A stretch of 64,000 bases of DNA. It comes from Candidatus Levyibacteriota bacterium. GTDB lineage: Bacteria; Patescibacteriota; Microgenomatia; Levybacterales; UBA12049. The position numbers and the translations under genes are program-made. The stretch covers positions 34,161-98,160 of the forward strand of contig JBPOIT010000012.1 in assembly GCA_052034235.1 (NCBI GenBank), written 5' to 3'. Shown here in pieces: positions 27,916-64,000 of this stretch. The stretch's first letter is position 1; each line of letters starts with the position of its first letter. The notes below the pieces were generated by a model that made no database searches, was not told the DNA's origin, and worked only from the letters and a program-made list of their open reading frames with translations.

Positions 27916-27974
27916 TGTATCTTAATATATTACTTGCAAACAAGTTTTTTCGCAATATGGAAATTACTATTCCC

Positions 27975-28718: not shown

Positions 28719-28775
28719 GTTATTGTCCTGATATTATACTATACAAATTACAAAATCAACTCTCTAAATGAGGAG

Positions 28776-29711: not shown

Positions 29712-29714
29712 ACG

Positions 29715-30044: not shown

Positions 30045-30052
30045 TAAAGACG

Positions 30053-30973
30053 ATGAAGAATGTTGCTGTCGTTACCGTTAATTACAATACTGCAGAGGAC
30101 ACTAAATCGTTCATTGAGTCCTTCGAGAAACTGAATACCCAGGGTCTCACCATGCAAATCATTATCGTTGATAATGGTTCAAAAGAAATATTTACACTTC
30201 CCGAAAAAGCGAAAAAAGAATCATTAACACTCATACGATCAGAGGAAAATACAGGGTTTTCGGGAGGGTTTAACATTGGTATCAAAGAAGCACTCGGCAA
30301 AGGTGTCGACTACGTGCTTATCGTTAACAACGACACGCTTATGCAGAGGGATATGGTTTTGGAATTACTTGAAGTTCTTAATAGTAAACCGGAAATCGGT
30401 GTCACCGCACCTAAGATTTACTTCTCAAAAGGTCATGAATTCCATAAAGACAGATATAAAAAAGAAGATTTGGGAAAAGTGTTTTGGTTTGCGGGCGGAT
30501 ATACTGATTGGAATAACGTCCAAAGTATCCATCGCGGTGTTGACGAAGTTGACCATGGACAATATGACACAGTTGAGAAAATTGCATTTGCTTCAGGCTG
30601 CTGCATGATGTTTAAACGGGAAGTACTCGAAAAAGTAGGATTTTTTGACGACAGATATTTTCTTTATTACGAAGATGCCGATCTCAATGAACGCATCAAC
30701 CGAGCAGGTTACGACGTCTACTACGTCCCTACAGCCGTACTGACACACGTCAATGCTGCATCATCCGGTGGTGCAGGCAATGTTTTGCAGGATTATTTCA
30801 TTACACGTAACAAAATGCTCTTCGGAATGACATATGCACCACTTCGCACAAGAGCAGCTCTTATCAGAGAAAGTATCAGACTTCTCAGAACTGGAAGGCC
30901 TTTTCAGAAAAAAGCCATACGAGATTATTATTTGAGGAAATTTAATAAAGGAACGTTTTTTGATACCCGCTAA
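30053..30973 (+). CDS. Glycosyltransferase family 2
   Basis: 'VAVVTVNYNTAEDTKSFIES' and 'IVDNGSKE' fit GT2. Confidence 0.8.
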   Translation: MKNVAVVTVNYNTAEDTKSFIESFEKLNTQGLTMQIIIVDNGSKEIFTLPEKAKKESLTLIRSEENTGFSGGFNIGIKEALGKGVDYVLIVNNDTLMQRDMVLELLEVLNSKPEIGVTAPKIYFSKGHEFHKDRYKKEDLGKVFWFAGGYTDWNNVQSIHRGVDEVDHGQYDTVEKIAFASGCCMMFKREVLEKVGFFDDRYFLYYEDADLNERINRAGYDVYYVPTAVLTHVNAASSGGAGNVLQDYFITRNKMLFGMTYAPLRTRAALIRESIRLLRTGRPFQKKAIRDYYLRKFNKGTFFDTR

Positions 30974-31851
30974 ATCCCGTCCAGCGCTTTTTGATATGTC
31001 TCCATAAGGTATGCATTTTTAGTCATGTTACCGATTGTCAGTAATAAATTGGCTTTTATAACAAGCATGCTTTTCATAATCGCATATTCTCTTTTTGAAC
31101 GATGTTTTTGATAAAAATATAAAAGATTTTTGTAGATATTAACAATAGCAAATGTTTTATTTGAACTCCCCTGATCTTTATGCAAAACAAATGCATTTGG
31201 GAAGAAATAAACCGCATATCCTGATTGAGACGCGCGGTAACAAAGCTCCATATCTTCAATATACATAAATATCTTTTCATCAAATCCGCCGAGTCTTTTA
31301 AAGACTTCTTTTCGAATCAGCAGCATACCACCCTTTACCCAATCAACTTTTTTGACCTGTTTTGGACTTTTATCAAGTAAGCCTAACTTATGACCTCCAA
31401 TCAGCAAAAGAAATGCAGGCCAAAGTGTATAAAACGTTCCGGCACAGGGTTGAAGTGTCCCATCAAAATTTTTCATCTGACCCCCCAAAATCGAAGCCTC
31501 ACTATGTGTTGCGAGGAAATGAGCCATTTCAAAAATACTTTTGTCTTTTACGACTGTATCGTTATTGAGAAAGAGAATATATTCACCAATTGAGGCTTGT
31601 GCGCCTTTATTACATCCAGCAGCAAAACCTGCATTGGAATCATTGGCTATCACCTGCACGTTTTTATACTGTTTCGTTGTTATTTCCTGATTTAACACGT
31701 CAACTGAATCATCCTGAGAATCATTGTCAACAATAATGAGTTCAATTTTATCCTGAGCGAATTCCTGAGCAAATTGCTCAAAAAGCGACGTCATGCACGC
31801 AAGCGTCAATTCTTTCTTTTTATAATTGAGTGTCACTATCGAAATAACCAT
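30970..31851 (-). CDS. Glycosyltransferase family 2
   Basis: 'ISIVTLNYKKKELTLACMTSL', 'IVDNDSQDDS' and 'MYIEDMELCYR' fit GT2. Confidence 0.8.
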   Translation of the reverse strand: MVISIVTLNYKKKELTLACMTSLFEQFAQEFAQDKIELIIVDNDSQDDSVDVLNQEITTKQYKNVQVIANDSNAGFAAGCNKGAQASIGEYILFLNNDTVVKDKSIFEMAHFLATHSEASILGGQMKNFDGTLQPCAGTFYTLWPAFLLLIGGHKLGLLDKSPKQVKKVDWVKGGMLLIRKEVFKRLGGFDEKIFMYIEDMELCYRASQSGYAVYFFPNAFVLHKDQGSSNKTFAIVNIYKNLLYFYQKHRSKREYAIMKSMLVIKANLLLTIGNMTKNAYLMETYQKALDGI

Positions 31852-31857
31852 AAAGTG

Positions 31858-32781
31858 TTAGAGGACATGTCCCCGCTGAAGGATCATTATCGCAAATAGT
31901 ATCATCAGTAAAAAGGCTATATGGTCAGTATTATGAGCAACAAGCCTCGCAATCTTTTTGCGTTCAATAATGACTGCATCAAGAAGAAGTACCATGATAA
32001 GTAGCCCGATGATACCATAGGCAATCTGTTGGGTGAACTTTTCACTGTTCACAAGCGGCTCTGTTGTTAAACCTGCGGCGTTTGCCTGAGCGATTGGTAT
32101 CGGCTGATTTGGAACATCCTCTTCAACAACAGCCGGGACACCTGAATTAGACGCACTTGCATCAGCAATTTGCTGTCCATCTGAACTTGACTCAGTTCCA
32201 AACATTTCAACAACCAGTACTGTCTCTGAGCCAGTCAGACTCCCTGTTGAGATAGCAAATCCAATGTCTGAGTAATTTGGCGACATGATATTCTCACGAT
32301 GCGTCGGGCTTGCCATCCAGGCTTCAACAACTTCAGGAGCTGTGGTAAAACCGCGAGCTAAATTTTCACCTGCGTATAGATATTCATACCCTGCACCTCT
32401 TATGAAATACCACGGAGTCGTTCCATCAGGCCCAATATGCGCCCAGAAATTTTTAGCAAACATATATTTTGCCTTGGCTGCAGCTGCCGTTTCGAGTTCT
32501 GTATTCATCGTTAAAGCCTTAAGCCCTTTTTCCGCACGTTTTTTATTGGTGAGTTCAAGTAATTCTTCTTTAGAGATATTTGCTGTTATGCCAAGAACTG
32601 AAGGGTAGGTCGATTGAACGGATTTTAGGAAAAACGTCGAGGTAATAATAAGTAAAATTAGAACAAGAAGTGTCTGTTCATGCAGTAAACGTGGCCTATG
32701 GTTATTGGATTCATGAGGCACCAAATAATGCCGTATGTGGTGCAGGAAATGTTTCATACTCGATTTAGTATAGCATCTCAT
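31858..32781 (-). CDS. CAP (SCP/PR-1/YkwD-like) domain protein with N-terminal TM anchor and C-terminal TM helix
   Basis: The CAP-like core 'HIGPDGTTPWYFIRGAGYEYLYAGENLARGF...AWMASPTHRENIM' is flanked by hydrophobic N- and C-termini. Confidence 0.7.
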   Translation of the reverse strand: MRCYTKSSMKHFLHHIRHYLVPHESNNHRPRLLHEQTLLVLILLIITSTFFLKSVQSTYPSVLGITANISKEELLELTNKKRAEKGLKALTMNTELETAAAAKAKYMFAKNFWAHIGPDGTTPWYFIRGAGYEYLYAGENLARGFTTAPEVVEAWMASPTHRENIMSPNYSDIGFAISTGSLTGSETVLVVEMFGTESSSDGQQIADASASNSGVPAVVEEDVPNQPIPIAQANAAGLTTEPLVNSEKFTQQIAYGIIGLLIMVLLLDAVIIERKKIARLVAHNTDHIAFLLMILFAIMILQRGHVL

Positions 32782-49766: not shown

Positions 49767-50792
49767 ATGAATAATAAAAAGTATACAATCGCAACACTTG
49801 GAAGTCATTCATCTTTGCAAATATTAAAAGGCGCTAAAGATGAAGGTTTTCAAACGCTTATTATTTCAACACCTGAAACTGAAGCATTTTATAAAACATT
49901 TCCGTTTATTGATGAACATATAATTATTCCAAAATTTTCAGAATTTTCAACGATTGAAAAAACACTCATTGAAAAAAATGTGATTGTTATCCCCCATGGT
50001 TCGTTTGTTGCATACCTCGGCTCAGAAAAAAATAAAACAATGAAAGCTATGTATTTCGGAAATAAAAGTGTTCTTGATTGGGAAGAAGACAGACAAAAGC
50101 AACGAGAATGGTTAACAGAAGCAAAGATAAATGTGCCGGAGCAGTTTGACTTAAGCGATGAAAAGAAAAGACCAATTCAATATCCAATTATTGTTAAGTC
50201 ATATGGAGCAGCTGGTGGCAAAGGATATTTCTACGCCAGAGACCGAAAAGACTTCGACGCAAAAATGGAAACGTTTGGAAAGAAAAAATATGTTATTCAG
50301 GAATACATAATCGGCGTTCCACTGTATGTCCATTTCTTTTATTCACCACTTACTGACAAACTTGAAATTATGAGTATGGATAAAAGGTACGAAACAAACG
50401 TCGACTCACTTGGTAGAATTCCACTTGAAGGACAAAAAGGACTTGTTATCGAACCTTCATATGTCGTTGTTGGTAACAGTAGTCTTGTTCTCCGTGAAGG
50501 GATGCTGACAGAAGCTTACAATATGGGCAGACGAGTAATCGATGCCTCAAAAAAACTTATCGACAAACGCGGCATGTTCGGCCCATTCTGCGTGGAAACA
50601 ATCATCACACCAGACCAGCGATTCTATGTCATGGAAATTTCCTGTAGAATTGTTGCAGGAACCAATCTCTTTACCTATGGATCTCCCTATTCATGGCTCT
50701 ATTATGATGAACCAATGAGTACAGGACGAAGAATCGCCAGAGAAATAAAAAATGCTATTGCTGATAATACCCTGCCCCAAGTATTAGACTGA
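49767..50792 (+). CDS. purP: 5-formaminoimidazole-4-carboxamide ribonucleotide (FAICAR) synthetase, archaeal-type formate-dependent PurP
   Basis: 'IATLGSHSSLQILKGAKDEGF', 'HGSFVAYLG', 'YFGN', 'HFFYSPL', 'MDKRYETN' and 'MGRRVIDASKKL...MFGPFCVE' closely track the M. jannaschii PurP family (DUF1246/DUF1297). Confidence 0.85.
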   Translation: MNNKKYTIATLGSHSSLQILKGAKDEGFQTLIISTPETEAFYKTFPFIDEHIIIPKFSEFSTIEKTLIEKNVIVIPHGSFVAYLGSEKNKTMKAMYFGNKSVLDWEEDRQKQREWLTEAKINVPEQFDLSDEKKRPIQYPIIVKSYGAAGGKGYFYARDRKDFDAKMETFGKKKYVIQEYIIGVPLYVHFFYSPLTDKLEIMSMDKRYETNVDSLGRIPLEGQKGLVIEPSYVVVGNSSLVLREGMLTEAYNMGRRVIDASKKLIDKRGMFGPFCVETIITPDQRFYVMEISCRIVAGTNLFTYGSPYSWLYYDEPMSTGRRIAREIKNAIADNTLPQVLD

Positions 50793-50793
50793 C

Positions 50794-52341
50794 ATGACAA
50801 ATAGTAAAACAACACATAAAACATCATACGCACTCATCAGTGTTTTTGACAAAGCAGGAATTCTCGACTTAGCAAAAACATTTGTAGAGAAGAATATTAA
50901 AATAATTTCAACCGGTGGTACTGCTAAATACCTTAAAGAAAATAACATTGACATAATCCCCATTGAAGATATAACCAAAATGCCTGAGAGTTTTGATGGA
51001 AGAATGAAGACAATCAGTTTTGAAATCGCATCAGGAATACTCTATGACAGACACAACACGTCGCATCAAGAACAAGCAGAAAAATTACAAACTCCTCACA
51101 TCGATTATATCGTTTGCAATTTTTATGATTTCTGGAAAAAACCAGGGATTGAAATGATTGATGTCGGCGGCCCAACAATGGTTCGTGCAGCTGCAAAAAA
51201 TTATCAAAGCGTCACAGTGCTGGTAAACCCTGACGACTACAGTGTCGTTATAGAAGAAATTAAAACCAAAGGACAACCAAGTGAAGAACTTCGTAAAGTA
51301 CTCGCAGGAACAGCTTTTTCCTACGTTGCAGAATATGACGCACTGATTGCAAATTATTTTCAAAAAGACGTCGATAGTGCAGATTGGTTCATTTCACTGC
51401 GAAACGGTAAGCGCCTGCGTTACGGAGAAAATCCTCATCAACAGGGCGAATTTTTTAAAGATCTTGAAGATACAGATGCGCTCGGACTTGGCAATTATGA
51501 AATGCTCCAGGGAAAAGAAATTTCATACAGCAATTATCTCGATTTAGACGGCGGTCTTCAGGCACTTTCCTGTATCGGACAAGAAAAACCAGCATGTGTT
51601 ATCTTAAAACACACCAACCCATGCGGCGCTGCACTTGGGAAAGATTTGAAAGACGCATTTCATAAAGCATGGTTTGAAGGAGATCCACTTGCTGCATTTG
51701 GTGGCATCATTTTCTTTAACAGACCTGTTGATGGAAAACTTGCAGAATATATGTTGGCTGATCGAAAGTTTTTTGAAATCATCGCCGCACCTGAATTTAC
51801 AAAAGAAGCACGAGATTTATTTAAAATAAAACCCAATTTGCGTCTTCTAGAAAACAAAGCACTGAGTAAACCTCAATTAGAGCCATATAGAGAAATTAAA
51901 AGAGTTCGGGGAGGATTTCTTGTACAAGACACTGATGTCAAAGTTCTTGATAAAAAAGCATTAAATGTTGTGACAAAGAAAAAACCAACCTCATCACAAA
52001 TTGAAGATATGCTTTTTGCCTGGGAAATCTCACGGGTTAGTAAATCAAATTGTGTGGTTGCTGTAAAAGACGGAGTGCTTCTCGCATCGGGAGTTGGACA
52101 ACAAGATAGAAAGCGCTGTTGTGAATTATGTGTTAGTAAAGCCCTTAAACCATTAACTGGAGCTGTCGCAGCAACCGACGGCTTTTTTCCTTTCAGAGAT
52201 GGACCTGATGTCTTGATCAAAGCGGGAGTGACTGCCATAATTCAACCAGGCGGCTCAATTAGAGATCAGGAAACAATTGACGCCTGTAACGAAGCAGGAA
52301 TAACCATGATCATGACAGGTGTCAGAGCATTTAAACATTAA
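50794..52341 (+). CDS. purH: Bifunctional AICAR transformylase / IMP cyclohydrolase
   Basis: 515 aa. The MGS-like N-terminus is 'ALISVFDKAGILDLAKTFVEKNIKIISTGGTAKYL' and the AICARFT domain carries 'VVAVKDGVLLASGVGQQDR'. Confidence 0.85.
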   Translation: MTNSKTTHKTSYALISVFDKAGILDLAKTFVEKNIKIISTGGTAKYLKENNIDIIPIEDITKMPESFDGRMKTISFEIASGILYDRHNTSHQEQAEKLQTPHIDYIVCNFYDFWKKPGIEMIDVGGPTMVRAAAKNYQSVTVLVNPDDYSVVIEEIKTKGQPSEELRKVLAGTAFSYVAEYDALIANYFQKDVDSADWFISLRNGKRLRYGENPHQQGEFFKDLEDTDALGLGNYEMLQGKEISYSNYLDLDGGLQALSCIGQEKPACVILKHTNPCGAALGKDLKDAFHKAWFEGDPLAAFGGIIFFNRPVDGKLAEYMLADRKFFEIIAAPEFTKEARDLFKIKPNLRLLENKALSKPQLEPYREIKRVRGGFLVQDTDVKVLDKKALNVVTKKKPTSSQIEDMLFAWEISRVSKSNCVVAVKDGVLLASGVGQQDRKRCCELCVSKALKPLTGAVAATDGFFPFRDGPDVLIKAGVTAIIQPGGSIRDQETIDACNEAGITMIMTGVRAFKH

Positions 52342-53432
52342 TGGATACAAAGCAAATTACCATAGCAACACTCGGAAGTCATTCAGCACTTGAGGTATGT
52401 CGAGGGGCAAAGGATGAAGGATTTAAAAATGTCGTTGTCTGCCAAAAAGGTCGTGAGGCAACTTATGCCAAATATTACAAAACAAACGGCTCAACAGGTT
52501 GTGTTGATGATGTCATCCTCGTTGATTCATTTAAAGATGTCTTAAAACCGGAAATCCAAAAACAGCTCATCGACCGCAACAGTATATTTATCCCCAATAG
52601 ATCTTTTGAAGTGTATATCAATGACTACAACGCAATTGAAAATGATTTTAAAGTCAAAATGTACGGCAATAAAAAAATTCTTCGAATTGAAGAACGAGGT
52701 TTCAAACCAAACCAATATGATCTTTTAGATGCAGCACGCATTCGTTATCCAAAACAATTTTCAGATCCAAAAGACATTGATTGTGTCTGTCTTGTAAAAG
52801 TGCTTGAACAAGAAAGAGGATTTGAAAGAGCATTTTTTATCGTTGATAGTTTTGAAGATTTCAAAAAACAAACTGATGAAAAAATCAGTAAAGGTATTTT
52901 CACTGAGGAACAATTAGGTAAAGCAGTTATAGAAGAATTCATCGTTGGTGTTCAAGTTAATTTTAATTATTACTATTCCCCGATTCATGATCGTTTGGAA
53001 CTGCTTGGAACTGATACCAGACGACAAACAAATTTTGAAGGCATAACCAAACTTCCTGTTGTGTATCAGGAAGAAGTACTCAAAAAAATGTCAATCAAAT
53101 ATGAAGAAGCAAGTCATACAGCTGTGACAGTTCTTGAATCACTGCTTGAACCGGTTTTTGAAATCGGTGAACGATTTGTAAAAGCATCAAAAGAACTTTC
53201 CTCACCTGGCGTCATCGGTCCATTTGCACTGCAATCATTTATCATCCCCGGTCCTCCAAAAAAAGATATCGTCGTCATCGATGTCTCGCCTCGCTATCCA
53301 GGATCTCCAGGCATTACGGCAACACCTTACAGCGGTTATCTTTTTGGAAAGTCGGTCAATGTCGGAAAGCGCATTGCTATGGAAATCAAAGAAGCAGTAG
53401 AATTAAAGAGACTTGATGAAATAATTTCATAA
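52341..53432 (+). CDS. Second, more divergent PurP-family ATP-grasp paralogue
   Basis: The N-terminus 'ITIATLGSHSALEVCRGAKDEGF' and C-terminus 'IGPFALQSFI', 'GKRIAMEIKEA' mark the PurP family. The middle is more divergent than in the 49767 copy. Confidence 0.75.
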   Translation: MDTKQITIATLGSHSALEVCRGAKDEGFKNVVVCQKGREATYAKYYKTNGSTGCVDDVILVDSFKDVLKPEIQKQLIDRNSIFIPNRSFEVYINDYNAIENDFKVKMYGNKKILRIEERGFKPNQYDLLDAARIRYPKQFSDPKDIDCVCLVKVLEQERGFERAFFIVDSFEDFKKQTDEKISKGIFTEEQLGKAVIEEFIVGVQVNFNYYYSPIHDRLELLGTDTRRQTNFEGITKLPVVYQEEVLKKMSIKYEEASHTAVTVLESLLEPVFEIGERFVKASKELSSPGVIGPFALQSFIIPGPPKKDIVVIDVSPRYPGSPGITATPYSGYLFGKSVNVGKRIAMEIKEAVELKRLDEIIS

Positions 53433-53433
53433 T

Positions 53434-54828
53434 ATGAGTGACCAAAAATTACCTTTTTCAGAACTAACAGCAATCTCGCCACTTGATGGACGTTATCGGT
53501 CACGTGTTGAAGAACTCGCACCCGTTGTCTCGGAATATGCCCTCATCAAATTTCGCATGGAAATCGAAATTACATATTTACTCGCACTATCTGAAGCAGA
53601 GGTGACACGACCATTTACTGATGATGAAAAACAATTGCTCCAAACAATTCTTAACGACACTAGTTTTGAAAGTATTGAAAAAGTAAAAGAAACAGAGAAC
53701 CAAACACGACATGACGTTAAAGCAATGGAGAGAACGCTTCGTTCATTACTTGAAAACACCTCACTTAAAGATCAAATTGAAATGATTCATATCGGACTCA
53801 CATCCGAGGATATTAATAATATCGCTTATCGATTGATACTCACACGCGGAACAGCTGTTGTTTTACATACCCTTGAAGAACTGATTGATGAGTTGGTAAC
53901 TCGTTCAAAAGAGTTCCGCTCAGTTCCCATGCTTGCCCGAACGCATGGACAACCAGCAGTCCCAACAACAGTCGGGAAAGAACTTTCAACCTTTGCAATT
54001 CGTCTTAATAGACAAGTGAGAAAATTACAAAAGCAAAAACTAACAGGAAAGTTAAACGGTGCGGTTGGTAGTTTTAATGCCTTACAATATGTCTTCCCTA
54101 AAACAGACTGGCCAGCATTTTCTGAAAAGTTTATTTCATCGTTTGGACTAACTCCAAATCTTTTTACAACACAAATAAATCAATATGATGATGTTATCGA
54201 GTATCTACAAATCATCCATAGAATTAACGGCATACTGATCGATTTTAATCAGGACATGTGGAGATATATCAGTGATGAATGGTTTGTCCAGGTTGCGAAA
54301 AAAGGAGAAGTCGGATCATCAACAATGCCGCAAAAAGTTAATCCAATTGATTTTGAAAATGCTGAAGGAAACTTGGGAATTGCTAATGGCATTATCGAAT
54401 CAATGTCCAGAAAACTGGTTATTTCAAGACTGCAAAGAGATTTATCAGACAGTACAACCATTAGAAACTACGGATCAATTCTTGCGTATGGGCTCGTAGG
54501 ATATAAAAGTATTCTAACCGGACTTGGACGAGTAAATCCAAATGTTGAAAAAATCTCACAGGAATTAAACAAAGAATGGGCCATTTTAGGTGAAGGTGTT
54601 CAAACACTTTTACGAAAAGTAGGAGTTGAAGATCCATATTCACTCATTTCATCTTTAACACGTGGTGAGAAAGTTGATGCAAAGCAGTGGACAGAGTGGG
54701 TTAAAAATCTTCCGGTTGCTGATGAAACAAAAACAATCTTACAAAATCTGACGCCCGAAACATATATCGGTTTGGCTCCAGAACTTACTGATAAAGCACT
54801 TGCAGAGATTGAAGAATCGAGAAAATAA
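53434..54828 (+). CDS. purB: Adenylosuccinate lyase
   Basis: It has the fumarate-lyase signature 'GSSTMPQKVNPIDFENAEGN' and is 464 aa. Confidence 0.9.
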   Translation: MSDQKLPFSELTAISPLDGRYRSRVEELAPVVSEYALIKFRMEIEITYLLALSEAEVTRPFTDDEKQLLQTILNDTSFESIEKVKETENQTRHDVKAMERTLRSLLENTSLKDQIEMIHIGLTSEDINNIAYRLILTRGTAVVLHTLEELIDELVTRSKEFRSVPMLARTHGQPAVPTTVGKELSTFAIRLNRQVRKLQKQKLTGKLNGAVGSFNALQYVFPKTDWPAFSEKFISSFGLTPNLFTTQINQYDDVIEYLQIIHRINGILIDFNQDMWRYISDEWFVQVAKKGEVGSSTMPQKVNPIDFENAEGNLGIANGIIESMSRKLVISRLQRDLSDSTTIRNYGSILAYGLVGYKSILTGLGRVNPNVEKISQELNKEWAILGEGVQTLLRKVGVEDPYSLISSLTRGEKVDAKQWTEWVKNLPVADETKTILQNLTPETYIGLAPELTDKALAEIEESRK

Positions 54829-55959
54829 GTGATGAAAAATCGAATTGGCATTGTTGGCGGTGGACAATTAGGAATAATGTTAACAGATGCTGCAAAAAAA
54901 TTAGGTTTTTCTGTCACCGTCATCGACCCCACTCCAAATAGCCCAGCAGGACAAGTTGCAGATCAACAAATCACAGCGCATTTTACTGATGAAAATGCAA
55001 TTAGAAAACTTGGCGAAGAATCTGACTTTTTAACATTTGAAATTGAGCTGGCCAACGCAAAAATCCTTGATGAACTTTCAGAACAAGGTTTGCAAATAAA
55101 TCCCTCTGCAAAAACATTAACGCTTATTAAAGATAAATTGGAACAAAAGAAATTTCTCCGCAAAAACGGAATTCCTGTTACTGATTTTGTAGGAGTCGAA
55201 ACCATAGATGACATAATTATTGCCGGACGTGAATTTGGCTATCCGTTTTTACTTAAAGCGCGTTTTGACGCATACGACGGAAGGGGCAATGCGCTCGTAA
55301 AAGAAGAAGCTCAAATTCAAGATGCATTTAATGGATTAGGAGGTAAATATTTATACGTAGAAAAATTTGTACCATTCATGAAAGAATTGGCTATAAATGT
55401 CGCTCGTAACAATAAAAATGAAATACTTTCTTATCCAGTTGTAGAAACCGTCCACAAAAATAATATCTGTCATATTGTTACAGCACCTGCACCCGTAAAT
55501 GATCTTGTAAAAGAACAAGCTAAAAAGTTTGGCGAAGAAACAATGAAACACCTGGGGGGTGCAGGGGTATTTGGAATTGAAATGTTTTTAACGGAAGAAG
55601 GAAATGTACTACTAAACGAAATCGCACCACGTGTTCATAATTCAGGACATTACACAATTGAAGCATGTCAAACATCACAATTTGAACAACATATACGCGC
55701 AGTAACCGGCATGCCCCTCGGATCAACTGAAATGATTGTTCCGGCAGCGGTGATGATCAATATTCTCGGCGAACGAAATGGAAAAGCAGAACCAAAAGGT
55801 ATTCAAGAAGCAGAAGCTATCACTGGTGTGAAAGTGCATATCTATGGTAAAATGGAAACACGAATTGAACGTAAAATGGGTCATCTGACAGCAGTCGCTG
55901 ATACTGTGGAAGAAGCAATGCAAAACGCTAAAAAAGCACGAGATCTAATAACTATATGA
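54829..55959 (+). CDS. purK: N5-carboxyaminoimidazole ribonucleotide synthase (ATP-grasp)
   Basis: '[29 protein letters not shown]' plus the ATP-grasp core. It is upstream of, and overlaps by 4 nt, purE. Confidence 0.8.
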
Positions 55960-56480
55960 GCAAAATTATTGTAGGAATTATCATGGGATCAGATAGCGAT
56001 TTGCCTGTTATGCAGGATGCAGCGACGATGCTTACAGAATTTGGCATCACGTCCGAAGTTACAATCGTTTCTGCACATAGAACACCAGATAGAATGTATG
56101 AATATGCAAAAGATGCAGAAGCACGCGGAATGAAAGTAATCATTGCAGGAGCTGGCGGTTCAGCACATTTACCAGGAATGGTTGCGTCCCTTACTTCCCT
56201 TCCCGTCATCGGCGTCCCGATCAAAACAAAATCACTTGACGGACTTGATTCATTACTCTCAATAGTCCAAATGCCCCCCGGAATTCCCGTTGCAACTGTT
56301 GCCGTAAACGGCGCAAAAAATGCAGGCCTACTTGCTGCAAGAATTATTGGTCTTTCACATGAAGAAATCTCAGACAAAGTAAAAGTCTATCAAAAAGAAT
56401 TAGAAACGTCAGTTCTAGAGAAAGTCGATAAACTTGCAGATAATGGTTTTAAAAACTATCTCCTAGAGATGAAGAAATAA
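55956..56480 (+). CDS. purE: N5-CAIR mutase
   Basis: '[16 protein letters not shown]', '[17 protein letters not shown]' and 'PVIGVPI' in a 174-aa protein. Confidence 0.9.
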
Positions 56481-56482
56481 TT

Positions 56483-57457
56483 ATGATTAGATCGCAGACA
56501 ATCCTTTCCGCACTGCCTCACGTACTTAAAACTATCGACCTACCAAACCTCGGAAAAAAATATCAGGGAAAAGTTCGTGATTTTTATTTATCTGGTGATA
56601 AACGGGTCACAATTACAACAGATAGACAATCTGCATTTGATCTCGTCCTTGGACACATTCCGTTTAAAGGAGCAGTACTTAATCAATTAGCTGCATTTTG
56701 GTTTGAAAAAACCAAACATATTGTTCCCAATCATGTCATCAGTGTCCCTGACCCAAATGTCCTTGTTTCCAAACAATGTAAAAACTTTCCAATAGAAATA
56801 GTCGTTCGGGGATACCTCACCGGGGTTGCCAATACATCAATTTGGTATTCATACGAAAAAGGTGAACGAACAATTTATGGTATGGAATTTCCGGATGGAA
56901 TGCATAAAAATCAAAAATTACCAATACCAATTATCACACCAACAACACATCCAGAAGCAGGCAGTGATAAACATGATGAACGGTTAACTCGGGATGAAAT
57001 TATCAATCAAAAAATTGTTGACCCAAAACTCTACGAGCGGGCTGAACAGGCGGCTTTGAAATTATTTGATTTCGGCAGTAAATGGTGTCTCAAACACGGA
57101 CTGATTCTTGTTGATACAAAATATGAATTTGGATTATATAACGGAGAACTAACACTTATTGATGAAATCCATACACCTGACAGTTCTCGCTTTTGGATTG
57201 CAGATACGTACGAGAAAAGAATCGCCAAAGGTTTGGAGCCAGAAAATTATGACAAGGAGTTTATTAGACTGTGGTACACAAAACGTGTAAATCCGTACAA
57301 AGATAAAATTCCCCCAATGACTGAAGATCTCATCGTACAAGTTGCTAAACGTTATATTGGCGCATATGAAAAACTCACTGAGAAAAAATTCAAACCGTTT
57401 CAGTATCCAATTGAAACCCGCATCAAACAAAACCTCAAAAAAGCTGCTATCATATAA
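56483..57457 (+). CDS. purC: SAICAR synthetase (long, eukaryote/yeast-like form)
   Basis: 324 aa carrying 'YQGKVRDFY', 'TTDRQSAFD' and 'ILVDTKYEFG'. Confidence 0.85.
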   Translation: MIRSQTILSALPHVLKTIDLPNLGKKYQGKVRDFYLSGDKRVTITTDRQSAFDLVLGHIPFKGAVLNQLAAFWFEKTKHIVPNHVISVPDPNVLVSKQCKNFPIEIVVRGYLTGVANTSIWYSYEKGERTIYGMEFPDGMHKNQKLPIPIITPTTHPEAGSDKHDERLTRDEIINQKIVDPKLYERAEQAALKLFDFGSKWCLKHGLILVDTKYEFGLYNGELTLIDEIHTPDSSRFWIADTYEKRIAKGLEPENYDKEFIRLWYTKRVNPYKDKIPPMTEDLIVQVAKRYIGAYEKLTEKKFKPFQYPIETRIKQNLKKAAII

Positions 57458-57462
57458 TTCTT

Positions 57463-58314
57463 ATGCTACTCCCCGCTTGGCTTCTTTTTGCGATTTTACA
57501 AGGTTTGACATCAAACGCATTTAATTTTTTCAGCAGGTATATCCTCAGAGGAAATGATGACGGGACTGCTTTTGCATGGCTTATGCAACTTATCCGTTTT
57601 ACCTTTTTTATTGTCTATGCAATACTTTTTGATTGGAGACTCGTTATCAGTTTTGAATCGATAGCAACCCTTCTCGTACTCGGCATTACCGAAACAATTG
57701 GCATATATTTCTATATGAAAATGCATACCCATAGCGAACTTTCAATCTCGACCATTCTCTCACGAACAAGAATGCTTTGGGTTCCGCTTTTTGCATTTTT
57801 GATAATTGGTGAGATTCTCAAACCAATTGAATATCTTGGCATTGCAATTCTTTTTATAGGAGTTTCAATAGTGAGTTCTCCGAAGAAAATGTTCGTTGAT
57901 AAAGGAGCACTCTATGCAAATGCATCATCTGTTGTTATAGCTCTTAATATTGTCATTTATAAGCTTTCAATGTCTTATGCTTCGGATCCAATAATACTTG
58001 CAGCTCTTGGTTTTCCGTCAATATTTATTCTTCCATTTTTTATGAGAAATGCGAGAAAAAGAATTGCTATAAATATCAAAGCAAGTCTGGGAATAAAACT
58101 TTTGGCAATCGGTTTTAATATTATTTCAATGTTCTTTTTTGCACTCGCCATGCAAACAGGAGAAGCAAGTAAAGTAAACGCCGTCTATCAGGGGATGCTT
58201 GTGTTCGCGGTCGTTGCAGGAATTGTATTTCTTAATGAACGAAAAGACATTCCGAAGAAAATTATCGGTACAGCGGTAACTGTTATAGGAGTTGTTTTGT
58301 TAAGCTTATATTAA
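57463..58314 (+). CDS. DMT-superfamily (EamA-like) 10-TM transporter, paralogue 1
   Basis: 283 aa and polytopic, about 40% identical to the adjacent gene ('NAFNFFSRYILRGNDDGTAFAWL' vs 'NAFNFFTRFVLKGDDDPIAYAWL'). Confidence 0.65.
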   Translation: MLLPAWLLFAILQGLTSNAFNFFSRYILRGNDDGTAFAWLMQLIRFTFFIVYAILFDWRLVISFESIATLLVLGITETIGIYFYMKMHTHSELSISTILSRTRMLWVPLFAFLIIGEILKPIEYLGIAILFIGVSIVSSPKKMFVDKGALYANASSVVIALNIVIYKLSMSYASDPIILAALGFPSIFILPFFMRNARKRIAINIKASLGIKLLAIGFNIISMFFFALAMQTGEASKVNAVYQGMLVFAVVAGIVFLNERKDIPKKIIGTAVTVIGVVLLSLY

Positions 58315-58316
58315 CT

Positions 58317-59168
58317 ATGTTTATCTTTACTTCTTGGTTCATTTTGGCGGCACTTGCAGGCTTTGCGTCAAACGCGTTTAACTTCTTTACACGTTTTGTT
58401 CTCAAGGGCGATGATGACCCAATAGCTTATGCTTGGCTATATGAAACAGTAAGATTTTTTGTTTTTGCAGTGCTCGCAATTTTTGATTATCGGCTTATTA
58501 TTACACCTCAATCAATTTTCTTTTTACTCGGTATTGGCGTTGCTGAATGGATTTCTATGTATTTTTACATGAAGATGCATTCATATACGCACTTGTCCAT
58601 TTCAACTATTGTTTCGAGGACACGGTTGATTTGGGTGGCAATTCTCGCAATTGTTATTGTTGGAGAAAGTCTCATAATGCATGAGTTTTTGGGAATTATT
58701 ATTATCTTTTTGGGACTCAGTATTGTTGTCTCACCAAAAAAACTTACCACAGATAAAGGATTAATTTATGCAAATCTTGCAGCATTTTTAATTGCCATTG
58801 ATATTATTTTTATCAAATTAGCTCTCCCCTATGCATCAAATTCAGTCATCAATGCTGCGATGTCACTTCCAGGTATGCTTTTGTTTCCTCTTTTTATGAA
58901 ACATCCTGTCAAACGAATTGCGCCCACATTAAAACGTAATTTTCGAATTAAAATGGTGGCAATTGGTTTTAATTGTCTAAGTGTGTTCCTGTTTGCACTT
59001 GCCATACGACTTGGAGACACAAGTAAAGTAACAGCAATTTATCAAAGCATGATGGTCGTATCAGTTATCACTGGTATCATTTTTCTTAACGAGCGAAAAG
59101 ACATTGGGAAAAAACTTATCGGCACTGTCGTCACACTTTTCGGTGTAGTACTCTTAACTGTACTCTAA
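58317..59168 (+). CDS. DMT-superfamily (EamA-like) transporter, paralogue 2 (tandem duplicate)
   Basis: See paralogue 1; it has the same length (283 aa) and a 2-nt intergenic gap. Confidence 0.65.
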   Translation: MFIFTSWFILAALAGFASNAFNFFTRFVLKGDDDPIAYAWLYETVRFFVFAVLAIFDYRLIITPQSIFFLLGIGVAEWISMYFYMKMHSYTHLSISTIVSRTRLIWVAILAIVIVGESLIMHEFLGIIIIFLGLSIVVSPKKLTTDKGLIYANLAAFLIAIDIIFIKLALPYASNSVINAAMSLPGMLLFPLFMKHPVKRIAPTLKRNFRIKMVAIGFNCLSVFLFALAIRLGDTSKVTAIYQSMMVVSVITGIIFLNERKDIGKKLIGTVVTLFGVVLLTVL

Positions 59169-59211
59169 TAGCTAAAAATGCTATAATATAAGCTAGTTTA
59201 GACACGCTGTT

Positions 59212-60321
59212 ATGGCTATTAAAAAAATCACCTATTCAGAAGTCGGAGACAATTACGACACAAAAGATCCTATTAAAATCCACGCACAAAAGGCTGCAGC
59301 ACTTACTGGTAAAAATCTGATGACACATGGTTTTGAAGAACTTTCTGATTCTCGCGGTGAATCAGCTTATGTCTGGAAACAGGGAAGTGTTTATATGGCA
59401 GCAGTTGCCGAACAATTGGGTACCAAAAATCTAGTCGCTGATGAAACACGAAAAATAACTGGTAAAACATATTACGATATTATTGCAAAAGACACCGTCG
59501 CAACGATCATCAATGATCTGACAACAGTTGGTGCACAACCGCTTGTAATTCACGCATACTGGGCAATCGAAAACAATGACTGGCTTGCTGATGAAGAACG
59601 TATGACTGATCTTATCAATGGATGGAAACAGGCATGTGATTTAGCAGGAGCATCATGGGGTGGCGGTGAAACACCTACGCTTAAAGGAATTATTACGCCA
59701 AATACCGTCGCGTTAGGCGGATCAGCAATTGGACTTATCTCAAAGAAAAAGCGCTATCTCCGCGATAAAAATATCAAAGACGGAGACCAGATTCTTTTTC
59801 TCAAAAGTAACGGTATTAATGCCAACGGTCTTTCTCTCTCAAGAGCTGTTGCAAAAAACCTCCCGAAGGGCTATGCTACCAAACTTTCAACTGGTGAAAT
59901 ATACGGCGAAGCGATTTTAACTCCCACCAACATTTACGCCAAACTTATCCAGGATCTTTTGGATAACGACATAGAACTTCATTATATTTCAAATATCACG
60001 GGACATGGCCTCCGAAAACTTATGCGTGCAAGACAAAATTTCACCTACGTGGTAGAAAAACTGTTTGATCCACAGGAATTATTCAACTTCATGCAAAAAC
60101 ATGCCAACCTCAGCGACTATGAGATGTATGACGAATTTAATATGGGACAAGATTATGCACTCATCTTACCTGAGAAAGATATTAAAAAAGCACAAGCAAT
60201 TGTAAAAAAACACAAATTTGAAAGCCTCCACGCAGGACATGTCGAAAAAGGCCCACGACAAGTCATCCTCAAATCGAAAAACATATCCTTCGAAGGAGAA
60301 CGCCTCCAAGTCCGCATTTAA
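59212..60321 (+). CDS. purM: AIR synthase-family protein, most likely phosphoribosylformylglycinamidine cyclo-ligase PurM (divergent)
   Basis: PurM-like blocks 'KDTVATIINDLTTVGAQPL' (cf. IGIDLVAMCVNDL..GAEPL), 'GGGETPTLKG' (GGETAEMPG), 'SNGINANGLSLSR' and 'NITGHG'. It is the only step-5 candidate in the pur cluster. Confidence 0.6.
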   Translation: MAIKKITYSEVGDNYDTKDPIKIHAQKAAALTGKNLMTHGFEELSDSRGESAYVWKQGSVYMAAVAEQLGTKNLVADETRKITGKTYYDIIAKDTVATIINDLTTVGAQPLVIHAYWAIENNDWLADEERMTDLINGWKQACDLAGASWGGGETPTLKGIITPNTVALGGSAIGLISKKKRYLRDKNIKDGDQILFLKSNGINANGLSLSRAVAKNLPKGYATKLSTGEIYGEAILTPTNIYAKLIQDLLDNDIELHYISNITGHGLRKLMRARQNFTYVVEKLFDPQELFNFMQKHANLSDYEMYDEFNMGQDYALILPEKDIKKAQAIVKKHKFESLHAGHVEKGPRQVILKSKNISFEGERLQVRI

Positions 60322-60528: not shown

Positions 60529-62388
60529 TTGTACCGCTGTTATTCTTGTTTCTGCATTTATAAAAACATGGTGAAAATTGTCGGAATCGCACAAAAAGAT
60601 AAAGAATTTTTCCTCTATTTCTCTTATACAAAAGGGCCGCATAGTTATTTCAAAGGAATTCCAAGCCGTGACGGATTTAAATTTGACGGACCAGCCAAAT
60701 ATATCATCGTCACTGATGAAAAAAAACGCGAAGAAAAGAAACACGAATGGAAAAACCTGCGCGTAGCGAAAGACAAAGAATCCTTCTTTATTACCTATAG
60801 ACCAGATGGAAAAACATTACCTTTAAATACTGCTAGCTCAGGAGATTTGATCAGGTGGAAAAAGAAAGGCAAAATAGATGACGTAAAAGAAGTTGGAGCA
60901 CTTGTACCTGATTTTAAATTTAAAAACAAACATGTCTTGTATTTTGGAGAGAAAGTTATTAAAGCGGCATTCTCAGGAGATCTGAATACATGGAAAGTAC
61001 AAGATGAACCCATACTAACACCACGTAGTGACTTTTTTGATGATGGAGATTTGGAAGTTGGTAATGCATTTGAAGTCCATGGACATATCATGCTTGTCTA
61101 TTACGTCAAGAAAAAAGTAAAGGGTAAGCCACGTTTCCAAGTTGGTGTTTGTTTCCTTGATAAAAAAGATCCCACTAAAGTTACATGGCGTGCACATAAG
61201 CCGCTTTGGGAACAACCAGAAGAATTTCATAACGACAACCTCAAGCCACTGGGTGTAGCAGCAACAGACAATGAAGTCATTCTCTATTGGATAGTCGGTG
61301 AACATAATGTCTATGCTGTTTCATGTCCGTTGCCAGGACACCATGTGGATTTAAAAGATAAATTCCATGAGACGATTATCAAAAAGTTTGGACACAACCC
61401 AATTCTTACACCAAACACGGATAACAAATGGGAATCTCGGGCGACATTTAACAGTGCAGCGGTATATGAAGACGGCCGTGTTCATTTCTTATACAGAGCA
61501 CTTGGCGATACTGATTTGTCTGTTTTGGGTTACGCGACAAGTAAAGACGGCTTCACAATTGATGAACGATCAGACGAACCATGTTATTTCCCGCGCGAGC
61601 CATTTGAAACGCCTGGTGGACACAGGTTTGGAAAATTTGCAGATCACTTTGCATCCGGAGGCGGTTATGGCGGCATTGAAGACCCACGTATTACAAGAGT
61701 CGGTGATGAGATGGTTTTGACCTATGTCGCGTTTGATGGAGCAAATCCTCCACGCGCTGCTATGAGTACAATAAAGGTTGATGATTTCCTCAAACGAAAA
61801 TGGGATCAATGGACACAAGCCAAGCTCATCTCAGCACCTGGCATGGTAAACAAAAGTGCTGTTGCCTTCCCTGAGAAGATAAACGGTAAATATGTGATGC
61901 TTCATAGAGTGTATCCAAATATTCTGATCGACTATCTTGATGATCTGAAATTCGATAAATATCTCCAAGGTCATCATTTTATCCCACCAAGAAAGAGATT
62001 CTGGGATAGTAAAAAAGTAGGAGCAGGCGCTCCTCCAATGCGTACTAAAGACGGATGGCTGTTGATTTATCAATCAGTTGGTTATCAGGATCCAGGCAGA
62101 TACAAGATTGGTGCAATGATGCTTGATATCAATAATCCAAGCAAAGTGCTCTACCGCTCAAGAAAACCAATTATTGCGCCAGACGAACCATACGAAAATA
62201 ATGGCTTTAAAGCTGGCGTTGTTTATCCATGTGGCGCCGTTATCAAAGATGAGAATTTATTTGTTTATTATGGCGGTGCTGATTCATTCCTTTGCGGCGC
62301 ATCACAAAATCTTGATAAATTCCTCTATCAGCTCAAAAATGATCAAGAGCCTACCATGAAACGAGTTTTTGTACCCTCTTTGAACTAA
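60529..62388 (+). CDS. GH130-like (DUF377) beta-propeller glycoside hydrolase/phosphorylase-family protein with an extra N-terminal domain
   Basis: The C-terminal half has 'HNPILTPN', 'FNSAAVYEDGRVHFLYRALG', 'GGIEDPRITRVGDEMVLTYVAFDG' and 'GWLLIYQSVG'. The start may be the Met at 60571. Confidence 0.65.
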   Translation: MYRCYSCFCIYKNMVKIVGIAQKDKEFFLYFSYTKGPHSYFKGIPSRDGFKFDGPAKYIIVTDEKKREEKKHEWKNLRVAKDKESFFITYRPDGKTLPLNTASSGDLIRWKKKGKIDDVKEVGALVPDFKFKNKHVLYFGEKVIKAAFSGDLNTWKVQDEPILTPRSDFFDDGDLEVGNAFEVHGHIMLVYYVKKKVKGKPRFQVGVCFLDKKDPTKVTWRAHKPLWEQPEEFHNDNLKPLGVAATDNEVILYWIVGEHNVYAVSCPLPGHHVDLKDKFHETIIKKFGHNPILTPNTDNKWESRATFNSAAVYEDGRVHFLYRALGDTDLSVLGYATSKDGFTIDERSDEPCYFPREPFETPGGHRFGKFADHFASGGGYGGIEDPRITRVGDEMVLTYVAFDGANPPRAAMSTIKVDDFLKRKWDQWTQAKLISAPGMVNKSAVAFPEKINGKYVMLHRVYPNILIDYLDDLKFDKYLQGHHFIPPRKRFWDSKKVGAGAPPMRTKDGWLLIYQSVGYQDPGRYKIGAMMLDINNPSKVLYRSRKPIIAPDEPYENNGFKAGVVYPCGAVIKDENLFVYYGGADSFLCGASQNLDKFLYQLKNDQEPTMKRVFVPSLN

Positions 62389-62455
62389 GATTGTAGAAAC
62401 TAGAATAGGCTTGTGGTACTTGTGATTTTCAATAGACACGTGATACCATTAATAT

Positions 62456-64000
62456 ATGGTTAAGCTTCAGCGCCATCCTAATAATCCAATACTTTCTCCT
62501 CTTCCTGATTTAGCCTGGGAACATGACGGTGCCTTTAATGGAAGTGTTGTCGAACATGACGGTGTATTTCACATGGTTTATAGAGCTCTCTCTTCCACAA
62601 AAAAACAAGCAGGTATTGATATGCGTGTTTCAACAGTTGGCTATGCAGAAAGCAGCGATGGCGTTCAATTTGGTACACACAAACAACTCATAGTGCCCAC
62701 TGAAGACTGGGAACTTTTTGGGGTTGAAGATCCACGTATAACGTATTTTGAAGGTTCGTATTATATATTTTATACAGCATTATCGGTCTATCCTTTTAGC
62801 GCCTACGGGATTAAAACCGCAGTCGCCAAAACAACAGATTTCAAAACATTTGAAAAACACCCAGTTTCAACCTTTAACGCAAAAGCAATGGCACTTTTTC
62901 CTGAAAGAATAAACGGTAAAATTGCCGCTCTCATAACGATTAATACTGATATGCCGCCAGCAAAAATTTGCTTGGCACTTTTTGACCATGAAGAAGATAT
63001 ATGGTCACATCATTATTGGGAAGACTGGTATGAAAATGCCAACGAACACACATTGCATTTATTGAGAGATATGACTGATCAGATAGAACTAGGTTCTACT
63101 CCTGTCAAAACCAAAGACGGATGGCTGGTTATCTATTCCTATATAGGAAACTATATGTCAAACAACAAACACTTTGGCATTGAAGCAGTACTACTTGATT
63201 TGGATGATCCTCGAAAAATAATTGGTAGAACTGAATACTCACTCATTTCACCTGAGAAAGATTATGAACTTTATGGTGATGTACCGAACGTTATTTTTCC
63301 ATCAGGAGCTCTTATTAATGGCAATCAATTGCATGTCTATTATGGTGCAGCAGATACACGAGTAGGACTCGCAACATGTAACATAAATGAACTGCTGAAC
63401 GAACTGACTGTGAACAAACCTGTCGTTAAACCAAATATTGCGTCCCCTCATAAATTCACACGTTTTCCAGGAAATCCGATCCTAGAGCCAATACTTGAGC
63501 TGCCGTGGCAAGCACAAGCAGTTTTCAATCCTGCAACAATTTACGAGGATGGAAAAATACATATTCTTTACCGAGCTCAATCAATGGATGGAACATCAGT
63601 CATGGGGTATGCAGTAAGTAAAGACGGCTTACATATAGACGAAAATCTTGATTACCCTATTTATACTCCAAGAGAACCCTTTGAACAAAAATTACATCAG
63701 ATTGGAAATTCTGGATGTGAAGATCCCAGAATTACAAAAATCGGTGATAGAATTTATATGACCTACACCGCTTACGATGGCAAAACACCACCGAGAGTGG
63801 CTCTGACATCGATTGCTATCACAGACTTTTTAAACAGAGACTGGCATTGGGATCGACCGAAATTGATATCGCCAGCTGGCGTTGATGATAAAGATGCCTG
63901 TATCGTACAAGGTAAAAAAGAAGGCACATATCTCGCATTCCATAGACTCAGTGATGCAATTTGGCTACAGGTAAGTAATACGCTTGATTTTTCTGAACAA
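62456..64000 (+). CDS. Tandem multi-domain GH130-like (DUF377) protein, 3' end outside the window
   Basis: The frame is open from ATG 62456 to the window edge (>514 aa). It has two full GH130-like units ('HPNNPILSP...GVEDPRITYFEGSYYIFYTA' and 'FPGNPILEP...GCEDPRITKIGDRIYMTYTAYDG'). It is not in the supplied ORF track. Confidence 0.65.
   Translation, partial: MVKLQRHPNNPILSPLPDLAWEHDGAFNGSVVEHDGVFHMVYRALSSTKKQAGIDMRVSTVGYAESSDGVQFGTHKQLIVPTEDWELFGVEDPRITYFEGSYYIFYTALSVYPFSAYGIKTAVAKTTDFKTFEKHPVSTFNAKAMALFPERINGKIAALITINTDMPPAKICLALFDHEEDIWSHHYWEDWYENANEHTLHLLRDMTDQIELGSTPVKTKDGWLVIYSYIGNYMSNNKHFGIEAVLLDLDDPRKIIGRTEYSLISPEKDYELYGDVPNVIFPSGALINGNQLHVYYGAADTRVGLATCNINELLNELTVNKPVVKPNIASPHKFTRFPGNPILEPILELPWQAQAVFNPATIYEDGKIHILYRAQSMDGTSVMGYAVSKDGLHIDENLDYPIYTPREPFEQKLHQIGNSGCEDPRITKIGDRIYMTYTAYDGKTPPRVALTSIAITDFLNRDWHWDRPKLISPAGVDDKDACIVQGKKEGTYLAFHRLSDAIWLQVSNTLDFSEQ

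Follow-up and report, generated by a model that had tools for sequence, protein, structure and literature searches.

A conserved gene pair of two-propeller GH130 proteins in Microgenomates-type bacteria, with predicted beta-1,2-mannoside phosphorylase units and one putatively non-phosphorolytic unit

Microgenomates have tiny genomes with very few glycoside hydrolases. We analysed a stretch of 64,000 nt from Candidatus Levyibacteriota bacterium (assembly GCA_052034235.1, contig JBPOIT010000012.1, positions 34,161 to 98,160, forward strand; in the following, the window), at the end of which two adjacent genes, A and B, encode proteins of glycoside hydrolase family 130 (GH130). Enzymes of this family are almost always single-domain and are used as tools for beta-mannoside synthesis. 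Genes A and B each encode exactly two GH130 five-bladed propellers, called A_N, A_C, B_N and B_C in the order of their occurrence. Positions are given in the numbering of the window, and residue numbers of the units are those of protein A (606 residues) or protein B (643 residues). The features of the locus are:

60568 to 62388, + strand: gene A, 606 codons and a stop; encodes a degenerate GH130 propeller and, after it, a catalytic unit of GH130
60568 to 61371, + strand: unit A_N, residues 1-268; catalytically dead GH130-like five-bladed propeller
61372 to 62385, + strand: unit A_C, residues 269-606; GH130 unit of the beta-1,2 type, with Gln for His in the phosphate site and a Gly-rich insertion
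61648 to 61674, + strand: FASGGGYGG loop of A_C, directly before the IEDPR motif; an insertion relative to the enzymes Teth514_1788 and Teth514_1789 (alignment)
62389 to 62455, + strand: spacer between A and B, 67 nt, the same in six independent assemblies
62456 to 64000, + strand: gene B, with an ATG start; first 515 of 643 codons, the gene being cut by the end of the window
62456 to 63421, + strand: unit B_N, residues 1-322; sugar and proton-donor site intact, phosphate pocket rebuilt
63431 to 64000, + strand: linker and unit B_C, residues 326-515 visible, the unit continuing to residue 643 beyond the window; canonical beta-1,2-mannoside phosphorylase type

Gene A extends from an ATG at 60568 to a TAA stop at 62386-62388. 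This start is used by the gene calls on 10 contigs and is also backed by about 120 homologues of 602-632 amino acids with a conserved M-[IV]-[KR]-x-x-G N-terminus; the 606-residue product replaces the 619-residue one from TTG 60529 assumed in a preliminary description of this DNA. Across 6.5-13.4 kb, the window shares 99.6-99.8% identity with six metagenome contigs, which come from different samples. From these near-identical contigs, gene B was completed to 643 residues (L001:11889-13820, where L001 is the extended locus), and on them it is followed by a convergent CorA gene. Genes A and B are located on the same strand in different frames, with several stops inside the spacer. A promoter and terminator scan found no terminator-like site on the + strand of the spacer and no signal exceeding the shuffled expectation. 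Beyond A and B, no further GH130 sequence is present in the 64-kb window, and Rfam and tRNA scans of the window gave no matches and hence no rRNA marker for taxonomy.

The assignment of the units is based on profile searches and on fold comparisons. When the units were scored separately (A_C residues 269-606, B_N residues 1-325, B_C residues 326-643), all three exceeded the cut-off of 26 bits for Pfam PF04041, with 154.9, 178.1 and 206.4 bits for A_C, B_N and B_C, respectively, and gene B was matched twice. For the whole of gene A, the PF04041 match (E 3.9e-53) covers residues 289-586; A_N alone has no Pfam match. The NCBIfam model NF052550 for beta-1,2-mannobiose phosphorylases detects all four units, with 55 (A_N), 230 (A_C), 193 (B_N) and 268 bits (B_C), while the whole proteins reach 279 and 300 bits, below the equivalog cut-off of 450. 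The match of A_N to this model (E 7.6e-15) spans profile positions 65-258 of 296, and A_N is also related to A_C and B_C at blastp E-values of ~1e-7. An AlphaFold2 (AF2) model of A_N, calculated from 25 relatives (pLDDT 90.7, pTM 0.89), shows an all-beta structure with 18 strands. Its top 34 Foldseek matches in the PDB are all GH130 proteins (E ~1e-13, TMq ~0.74, 13-22% identity), with the GH43 arabinanases following far behind. For the full protein B, the AF2 model (pLDDT 93.7, pTM 0.85) is uncertain only in the linker around residues 321-335, which suggests a fixed two-propeller body. The best single-unit Foldseek match of this model is 9FJ8 (Teth514_1788), with a TMt of 0.89 and a root mean square deviation of 2.1 Å; no chain of the PDB spans both halves of B (Foldseek, TMq <= 0.42). 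Models and Foldseek matches together support the five-bladed beta-propeller fold for A_N and B.

The preliminary description had proposed two adjacent GH130-like genes with up to three propeller units each. The adjacency and the common strand hold, with PF04041 scores above the cut-off, but each gene contains exactly two units and not three. The extra N-terminal domain reported for the first gene exists and, rather than being a domain of a separate type, is a degenerate GH130 propeller, as seen from NF052550, AF2 and Foldseek. The two complete units ascribed to gene B are present in the full 643-residue protein, although within the window the second one is incomplete (residues 326-515 of 326-643). 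The G.EDPRIT hallmark was found in three copies, as GIEDPRIT in A_C (ED at 61678-61683), GVEDPRIT in B_N (ED at 62726-62731) and GCEDPRIT in B_C (ED at 63719-63724).

The family, fold, mechanism and residue rules of GH130 are established, and the function of A and B is predicted. In the numbering of UhgbMP, Asp104 is the proton donor, Arg168 and His231 bind phosphate, and the +1 subsite consists of Arg59, Tyr103, Arg150 and Asp304; a Glu at position 103 together with a Lys at position 150 marks beta-1,2 specificity (PMC7660257, PMC4599007). The mannose at subsite -1 is bound by Asn28, Asp92 and Asp281 in Teth514_1788 (PMC4264767). In family GT108, phosphate is contacted by Lys, Arg, His and Tyr (PMC10913872). 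The corresponding positions of the four units were mapped via HMMER alignments to 9FJ8, 7FIP, 1VKD and 4UDK and via a MAFFT alignment; residues were counted in 118 full-length relatives of B and 121 of A. Mean column conservation amounts to 0.60 for A_N, 0.81 for A_C, 0.77 for B_N and 0.75 for B_C, with 14, 137, 97 and 86 invariant positions, respectively.

Three of the units retain the catalytic Asp as well as the Asn and Asp of subsite -1, namely N295/D372/D572 in A_C, N28/D92/D300 in B_N and N358/D423/D623 in B_C. The Glu/Lys pair is invariant in the same units (E371/K429, E91/K143 and E422/K479) and predicts, by the rule of PMC7660257, a beta-1,2 linkage for the substrates of all three. 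In A_N, KNLRV (60751-60765) stands in place of EDPR, and none of the catalytic, phosphate and +1 positions is conserved across the 121 relatives; A_N is a decayed GH130 copy without catalytic residues.

B_C reaches 267.8 bits on NF052550 and matches 7FIP (E 8.7e-60) and 9FJ8 (E 3.1e-59) in the PDB. N358, R373, E422, D423, K479, R497, Y563, G566 and D623 are found in 118/118 relatives and H554 in 117/118. Judged by its residues, B_C carries the complete beta-1,2 phosphorylase signature and is the sole unit with equivalents of both Arg168 and His231. For A_C, the best NCBIfam model is that for beta-1,2-mannobiose phosphorylase (230 bits, cut-off 450) and the best PDB match is 9FJ8 (E 5.6e-55). 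Its residues N295, R310, E371, D372, K429, R447, Y512 and D572 are retained in 121/121 relatives. The position of the phosphate-site His is occupied by Q502, with Gln in 117 and His in 4 relatives. The Gly-rich loop preceding its Glu-Asp motif is invariant from G364 to G369 in 25 diverse relatives and sits where other GH130 enzymes have a lid that limits chain length; by analogy with PMC12814180, it may act as such a lid.

B_N combines an intact sugar site with an altered phosphate site. N28, R43, E91, D92, K143 and D300 are retained in 118/118 relatives. The Arg168-equivalent position is taken by T161 (62936-62938; 117/118), the His231-equivalent position by S228 (63137-63139; 117/118) and that of the conserved Tyr by F240 (63173-63175; 118/118). 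A Gly that is invariant in phosphorylase-type units is replaced by E243 (63182-63184; 117 Glu, 1 Asp). Thr161 was assigned from the 1VKD and 4UDK alignments together with the strand register seen in the model. The hairpin past Thr161 is longer and forms a conserved N-T-D-x-P-P-A-K loop, in which T164-D165 (62945-62950; 118/118) and Pro168 are invariant; this loop occupies the position of loop L2, which has been linked to donor choice (PMC12814180). The AF2 model also shows a helical insertion at residues 179-198. As the replacements of the phosphate ligands are themselves invariant, they argue for selection for a new pocket and not for decay. By these residues, B_N does not appear to be a phosphorylase. 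On NF058598, the equivalog model for BT3780-type mannosidases, it scores 92 bits at a cut-off of 550; should B_N nevertheless be a hydrolase, it probably arose independently of the Bacteroides enzymes.

Hence, the catalytic Asp, whose conservation the preliminary description had proposed to check, is kept by A_C, B_N and B_C and is lost from A_N; the possibility it raised of non-catalytic propellers applies to A_N only. The phosphate ligands are complete in B_C and in part present in A_C, where the Arg is kept and the His is Gln; B_N lacks three of the four, and A_N has none. The earlier suggestions of several activities in one protein and of beta-mannosides as substrate class agree with these data: the active-site signatures differ between the units, and the Glu/Lys pair makes such a substrate likely. 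Signal peptides were also looked for, and by inspection neither a signal peptide nor a transmembrane stretch was found at the N-termini of A and B (MVKIVGIAQKDKEF and MVKLQRHPNNPIL), which lack a hydrophobic leader.

For A as well as for B, full-length relatives at 57-84% identity are very numerous. Those with names belong to Patescibacteria, Levyibacteriota or Saccharimonadales, and the NCBI locus tags of the A and B homologues are consecutive. A scan with one genome per species gave 68 loci, from Levy-, Gottesman-, Woese-, Curtiss-, Shapiro- and Roizman-bacteria, Paceibacterota and some bins whose labels are plainly wrong. The pair is also present in complete genomes, for instance CP066686.1 and OZ246394.1. 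In 60/63 loci whose contig runs past A, the units follow one another on a single strand as A_N-A_C-B_N-B_C, and A and B are separate open reading frames (ORFs) in 65/65 loci where both were found, the six assemblies of the locus described here included. With the A_N profile alone, 916 clusters at 50% identity were detected at E<=1e-3, 392 at E<=1e-10 and 119 at E<=1e-30, mostly proteins of 600-650 amino acids with A_N at the N-terminus. Two proteins, P0027 (1110 residues) and P0038 (996 residues), are single chains of A_C-like, B_N-like and B_C-like units with the order kept; their first, A_C-like unit retains the His. These rare natural fusions independently support the view that the units work together. 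In P0027, a remnant of A_N is seen at the N-terminus. In another locus a lone B_N-like gene (L068:3493-4446), 37% identical, lies on the opposite strand ~6 kb from the pair. Many public records of metagenome-assembled genomes with the module (L013, L014, L018, L022 and others) are titled 'uncultured Gammaproteobacteria', 'Methanoperedens', 'Sulfotelmatobacter' or 'Methylomirabilota'; these titles look like placeholder or mis-binned names and are unreliable for taxonomy.

In the literature, fusions of this kind are rare. More than 99% of predicted GH130 phosphorylases are single-module, and CAZy records the GH130-GH130 combination once, within 6 multimodular of 1592 entries (PMC7660257). The preliminary description had called tandem GH130 fusions uncommon, which agrees with these CAZy and gut data but not with the present lineage, in which the families are large (392 A_N clusters at the middle threshold). 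For one Microgenomates genome, "two enzymes of family GH130" without signal peptides were reported among only five glycoside hydrolases (PMC7143001). The literature searched contained no account of the four-unit module, the dead unit, the Thr/Ser/Phe/Glu pocket or the taxonomic home of the gene pair.

Apart from A and B themselves, the surroundings of the pair are not conserved. When the 996 ORFs of 69 loci were clustered, no other family occurred in more than 16/69 loci, and those present were housekeeping families. Just downstream of the window, past the CorA gene, the minus strand carries an alpha-glucan phosphorylase gene (PF00343) and a GT5/GT4 glycogen-synthase-like gene (L001:14994-18303). 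Both families occur near the pair in 7/69 loci, and the GH130 pair and the glycogen genes may belong to a loosely assembled set of genes for storage carbohydrates.

The best sequence and fold matches of A_C, B_N and B_C are two GH130_6 enzymes of Thermoanaerobacter sp. X-514, the 1,2-beta-oligomannan phosphorylase Teth514_1788 (9FJ8) and the beta-1,2-mannobiose phosphorylase Teth514_1789 (7FIP), with E-values of 1e-44 to 1e-60, 33-39% identity and TMt values of 0.87-0.90. They have the Glu-Asp motif and the Lys specificity residue in common with all three units, and share the Arg/His/Tyr phosphate site with B_C. Like A and B, they are encoded by two adjacent genes and lack signal peptides; the two Teth514 enzymes differ in their chain-length preference (PMC4264767). 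Unlike A and B, they are single-propeller proteins of ~300 residues that form non-covalent dimers, and their cluster contains an ABC transporter, a GH5 enzyme, a guanylyltransferase and a GT4 enzyme, neighbours that are not conserved beside A and B. A and B in turn differ from the Teth514 pair in being two-propeller fusions, of which one unit is dead, one is without a phosphate site and one has Gln for His.

A second comparison is with the GH130_3 beta-1,2-mannosidases BT3780 and BACOVA_03624. Like B_N, these possess the catalytic Asp, the neighbouring Glu and the Lys, lack the basic phosphate residues and have carboxylates in the pocket; unlike B_N, they are secreted and monomeric and carry the pair Glu227/Glu268. 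The Thr, Ser and Phe of B_N together with Glu in place of Gly would be an independent solution compared with the BT3780 type. The Leishmania GT108 proteins MTP1-7 and dual-activity GH130 enzymes such as Uhgb_MS have the same five-bladed fold and reaction geometry and act on beta-1,2-mannans. Like the units of A and B, the GT108 paralogues are split into phosphorylases and non-phosphorolytic members by changes in the phosphate site. However, they are separate proteins, and the strict transferases have His where B_N has Thr. The likeness of GT108 to B is at the level of the fold only (Foldseek E ~2e-9, 12-15% identity, TMt ~0.6), and no GT108 chain was matched by phmmer among the PDB sequences for A_C, B_N and B_C.

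Taken together, these observations lead us to favour, with slightly better than even confidence, the reading that A and B together constitute a GH130 module of four propellers that is conserved in Microgenomates-type bacteria of the candidate phyla radiation (CPR), acts in the cytoplasm on beta-1,2-linked mannosides and contains one non-phosphorolytic unit. In the mechanism we propose, B_C would be a standard inverting beta-1,2-mannoside phosphorylase that releases alpha-mannose-1-phosphate, with Asp423 acting as the proton donor via an O3 relay and Lys479, Arg497, His554 and Tyr563 holding the phosphate. A_C would be a second phosphorylase-type unit, with His replaced by Gln and the pocket covered by a lengthened Gly-rich loop; a difference in chain-length or acceptor preference is probable, comparable to the adjacent pair Teth514_1788/1789. 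B_N is expected to bind a similar sugar and to retain the proton donor without being able to hold phosphate. Most likely, its nucleophile is water or some other compound than phosphate; a water molecule could be activated by Glu243, the best candidate for the base, and perhaps by Asp165.

A_N may have been retained as a structural partner. Since proteins of GH130 usually assemble as homo-oligomers, Teth514_1788 as a dimer, each fusion is plausibly a covalent pseudo-dimer, one half of which was free to decay (in A) or to change its chemistry (in B). As signal peptides and transmembrane stretches are missing, A and B would use cytoplasmic phosphate, and the mannose-1-phosphate could feed GDP-mannose or glycolysis without ATP cost. 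The window contains a gmd gene for GDP-mannose 4,6-dehydratase (21762-22733; above the curated cut-off). The genome therefore uses GDP-mannose, which gives mannose-1-phosphate an obvious use.

Several points weigh against this reading. All units remain under the NF052550 equivalog cut-off of 450, the three with a catalytic Asp at 193-268 bits, and the relatives that have been assayed share no more than 39% identity. In A_C, the exchange of His for Gln could impair phosphate binding. For B_N, the HMMER alignment to 9FJ8 shifts the Arg168 equivalent by three residues onto Thr164/Asp165, with no Arg either way, and Glu243 and Asp165 are placed in or beside the former phosphate pocket by sequence. 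B_N is also nearer to the phosphorylases than to the GH130 hydrolases (193 bits on NF052550 vs 92 bits on NF058598), a search with its pocket region did not hit the PDB entries of the hydrolases BT3780 and BACOVA_03624 at E<=1, and it has no signal peptide, unlike the known GH130 hydrolases. A transporter, a phosphomannomutase or a guanylyltransferase is not conserved beside the pair in the 69 loci, and the sole nucleotidyltransferase seen in the window resembles RmlA. Finally, we know of no natural source of beta-1,2-mannosides for these organisms.

One alternative is a different division of labour, in which only the C-terminal unit of each protein is catalytic and B_N, like A_N, is non-catalytic, either a lectin-like holder of a beta-1,2-mannoside chain or simply the second half of an obligatory pseudo-dimer. 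B_N is without three of the four phosphate ligands and has no Glu pair that can be shown to correspond in position to that of the BT3780 hydrolase. The sister protein tolerates the dead unit A_N, residues contacting the sugar would stay conserved in a binding module as well, and the pTM of 0.85 for B suggests a fixed two-propeller body. On the other hand, B_N is as conserved as B_C (0.77 vs 0.75; 97 vs 86 invariant positions) and the dead A_N far less (0.60; 14), and the former phosphate pocket of B_N is invariant, with T161, T164, D165, S228, F240 and E243 present in 117-118/118 relatives. This pattern argues, as far as residue conservation can tell, for strict selection on the pocket of a unit that is not decaying, and we consider the binding-module alternative unlikely, though to be taken seriously. 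The module might instead both make and break an internal beta-1,2-mannan similar to the mannogen of Leishmania, with B_N, or A_C with its Gly-rich loop, as a GDP-mannose-dependent beta-1,2-mannosyltransferase and B_C as the phosphorylase mobilising the polymer. Mannosyltransferase activity with GDP-mannose is a property of beta-1,2-specific GH130 enzymes, among them Teth514_1788 as the closest relative with a solved structure (PMC12814180), and the GT108 family, whose structures are fold relatives of B, includes strict transferases without the phosphate-binding Arg. Both proteins are cytoplasmic, and their conservation is high in bacteria that possess very few glycoside hydrolases (PMC7143001); genes for glycogen synthase and alpha-glucan phosphorylase are located just downstream and in 7/69 loci, and gmd points to the use of GDP-mannose by this genome. 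However, the strict GT108 transferases retain a basic His at the Arg position, and in Uhgb_MS a Lys and two Arg residues have been proposed to hold the diphosphate; the Thr, Ser and Phe at these positions of B_N would make a poor GDP-mannose site. Moreover, no beta-1,2-mannan has been reported in CPR bacteria, and the link to glycogen genes is confined to a minority of loci, so that a synthesising module seems improbable to us.

Two further explanations concern the location of the proteins and the integrity of the genes. A and B could be secreted or surface glycanases that degrade host or environmental mannan, since the known GH130 hydrolases are secreted and CPR bacteria live attached to hosts. 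The missing signal peptides and transmembrane stretches speak against this, as do the two units that hold three or all four phosphate ligands, in line with phosphate being drawn from the cytoplasm; for the two GH130 enzymes of the Microgenomates genome Ch65, its authors concluded likewise (PMC7143001). We regard extracellular action as very improbable. The preliminary description had also considered a single gene that a sequencing error around 62389-62455 breaks into A and B; an assembly error would have the same effect. The genes share a strand, the spacer measures only 67 nt, and natural single-chain fusions of A_C, B_N and B_C exist elsewhere. Nevertheless, six independent assemblies, made from different samples, agree in the TAA stop and in the spacer sequence, the frames differ and the spacer has several stops, the two ORFs are separate in all 65 loci, and the homologues cluster tightly at ~606 (A) and ~643 residues (B). 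The probability of a split gene is therefore practically nil.

A more speculative extension of the favoured four-propeller reading, which we regard as quite improbable, is that B_N represents a new catalytic type of GH130, with its mannose site and proton relay retained and phosphate exchanged for another nucleophile or donor, and that it cycles, together with A_C and B_C, an internal mannogen-like beta-1,2-mannan reserve in CPR bacteria. If so, bacteria would possess a storage polymer that is not known from them so far, and its cycling would explain why organisms that have hardly any glycoside hydrolases maintain a four-propeller module, at 60-70% identity between candidate phyla. The four units form a natural series of a predicted standard phosphorylase, a His-to-Gln variant, a phosphate-less variant and a dead scaffold, which suits the question of what separates phosphorylases, hydrolases and transferases; the determinants of chemistry in this fold are under active study for GH130 and GT108. 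The module as a whole points to an unrecognised cytoplasmic beta-mannoside metabolism in Microgenomates.

Upstream of the pair, a purine-synthesis operon (49767-60321) contains two PurP genes of the archaeal type (DUF1246/DUF1297; 49767-50792 and 52341-53432), after which come purH, purB, purK, purE, purC and a purM-like gene. Just past the window (L001:13833-21821), genes for an archaeal-type phosphoenolpyruvate carboxylase (PEPcase_2), a CarS-like protein (CDP-archaeol synthase family) and a DAGK-type lipid kinase are found. Near the GH130 pair, a CarS-like gene occurs in 15/69 loci and an inositol-1-phosphate synthase-like gene in 9/69. An archaeal origin of the DNA, which PurP, PEPcase_2 and the CarS-like gene might suggest, was rejected, as the named homologues are Patescibacteria and the window contains the bacterial SecDF, FtsX, M23 peptidase and TsaE.

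On the minus strand, a large cluster of sugar-nucleotide and glycosyltransferase genes (19565-32781) encodes an RmlA-like nucleotidyltransferase (below the cut-off), a dTDP-glucose 4,6-dehydratase, an RmlD-like reductase, a UDP-glucose 6-dehydrogenase and gmd, together with more epimerase/dehydratase paralogues, a NUDIX protein, three GT2 genes and a GT2-GtrA fusion. A gene at 14660-17401, also on the minus strand, encodes a 913-residue protein with at least four ELWxxDGT repeats (TIGR04534, E 6.5e-103), beside which a 589-residue ORF (17746-19515) had no NCBIfam match. Within the purine operon, between purC and the purM-like gene, lie two tandem paralogues of EamA-family transporters (57463-59168; 283 residues each), and a related EamA gene occurs near the GH130 pair in 8/69 loci.

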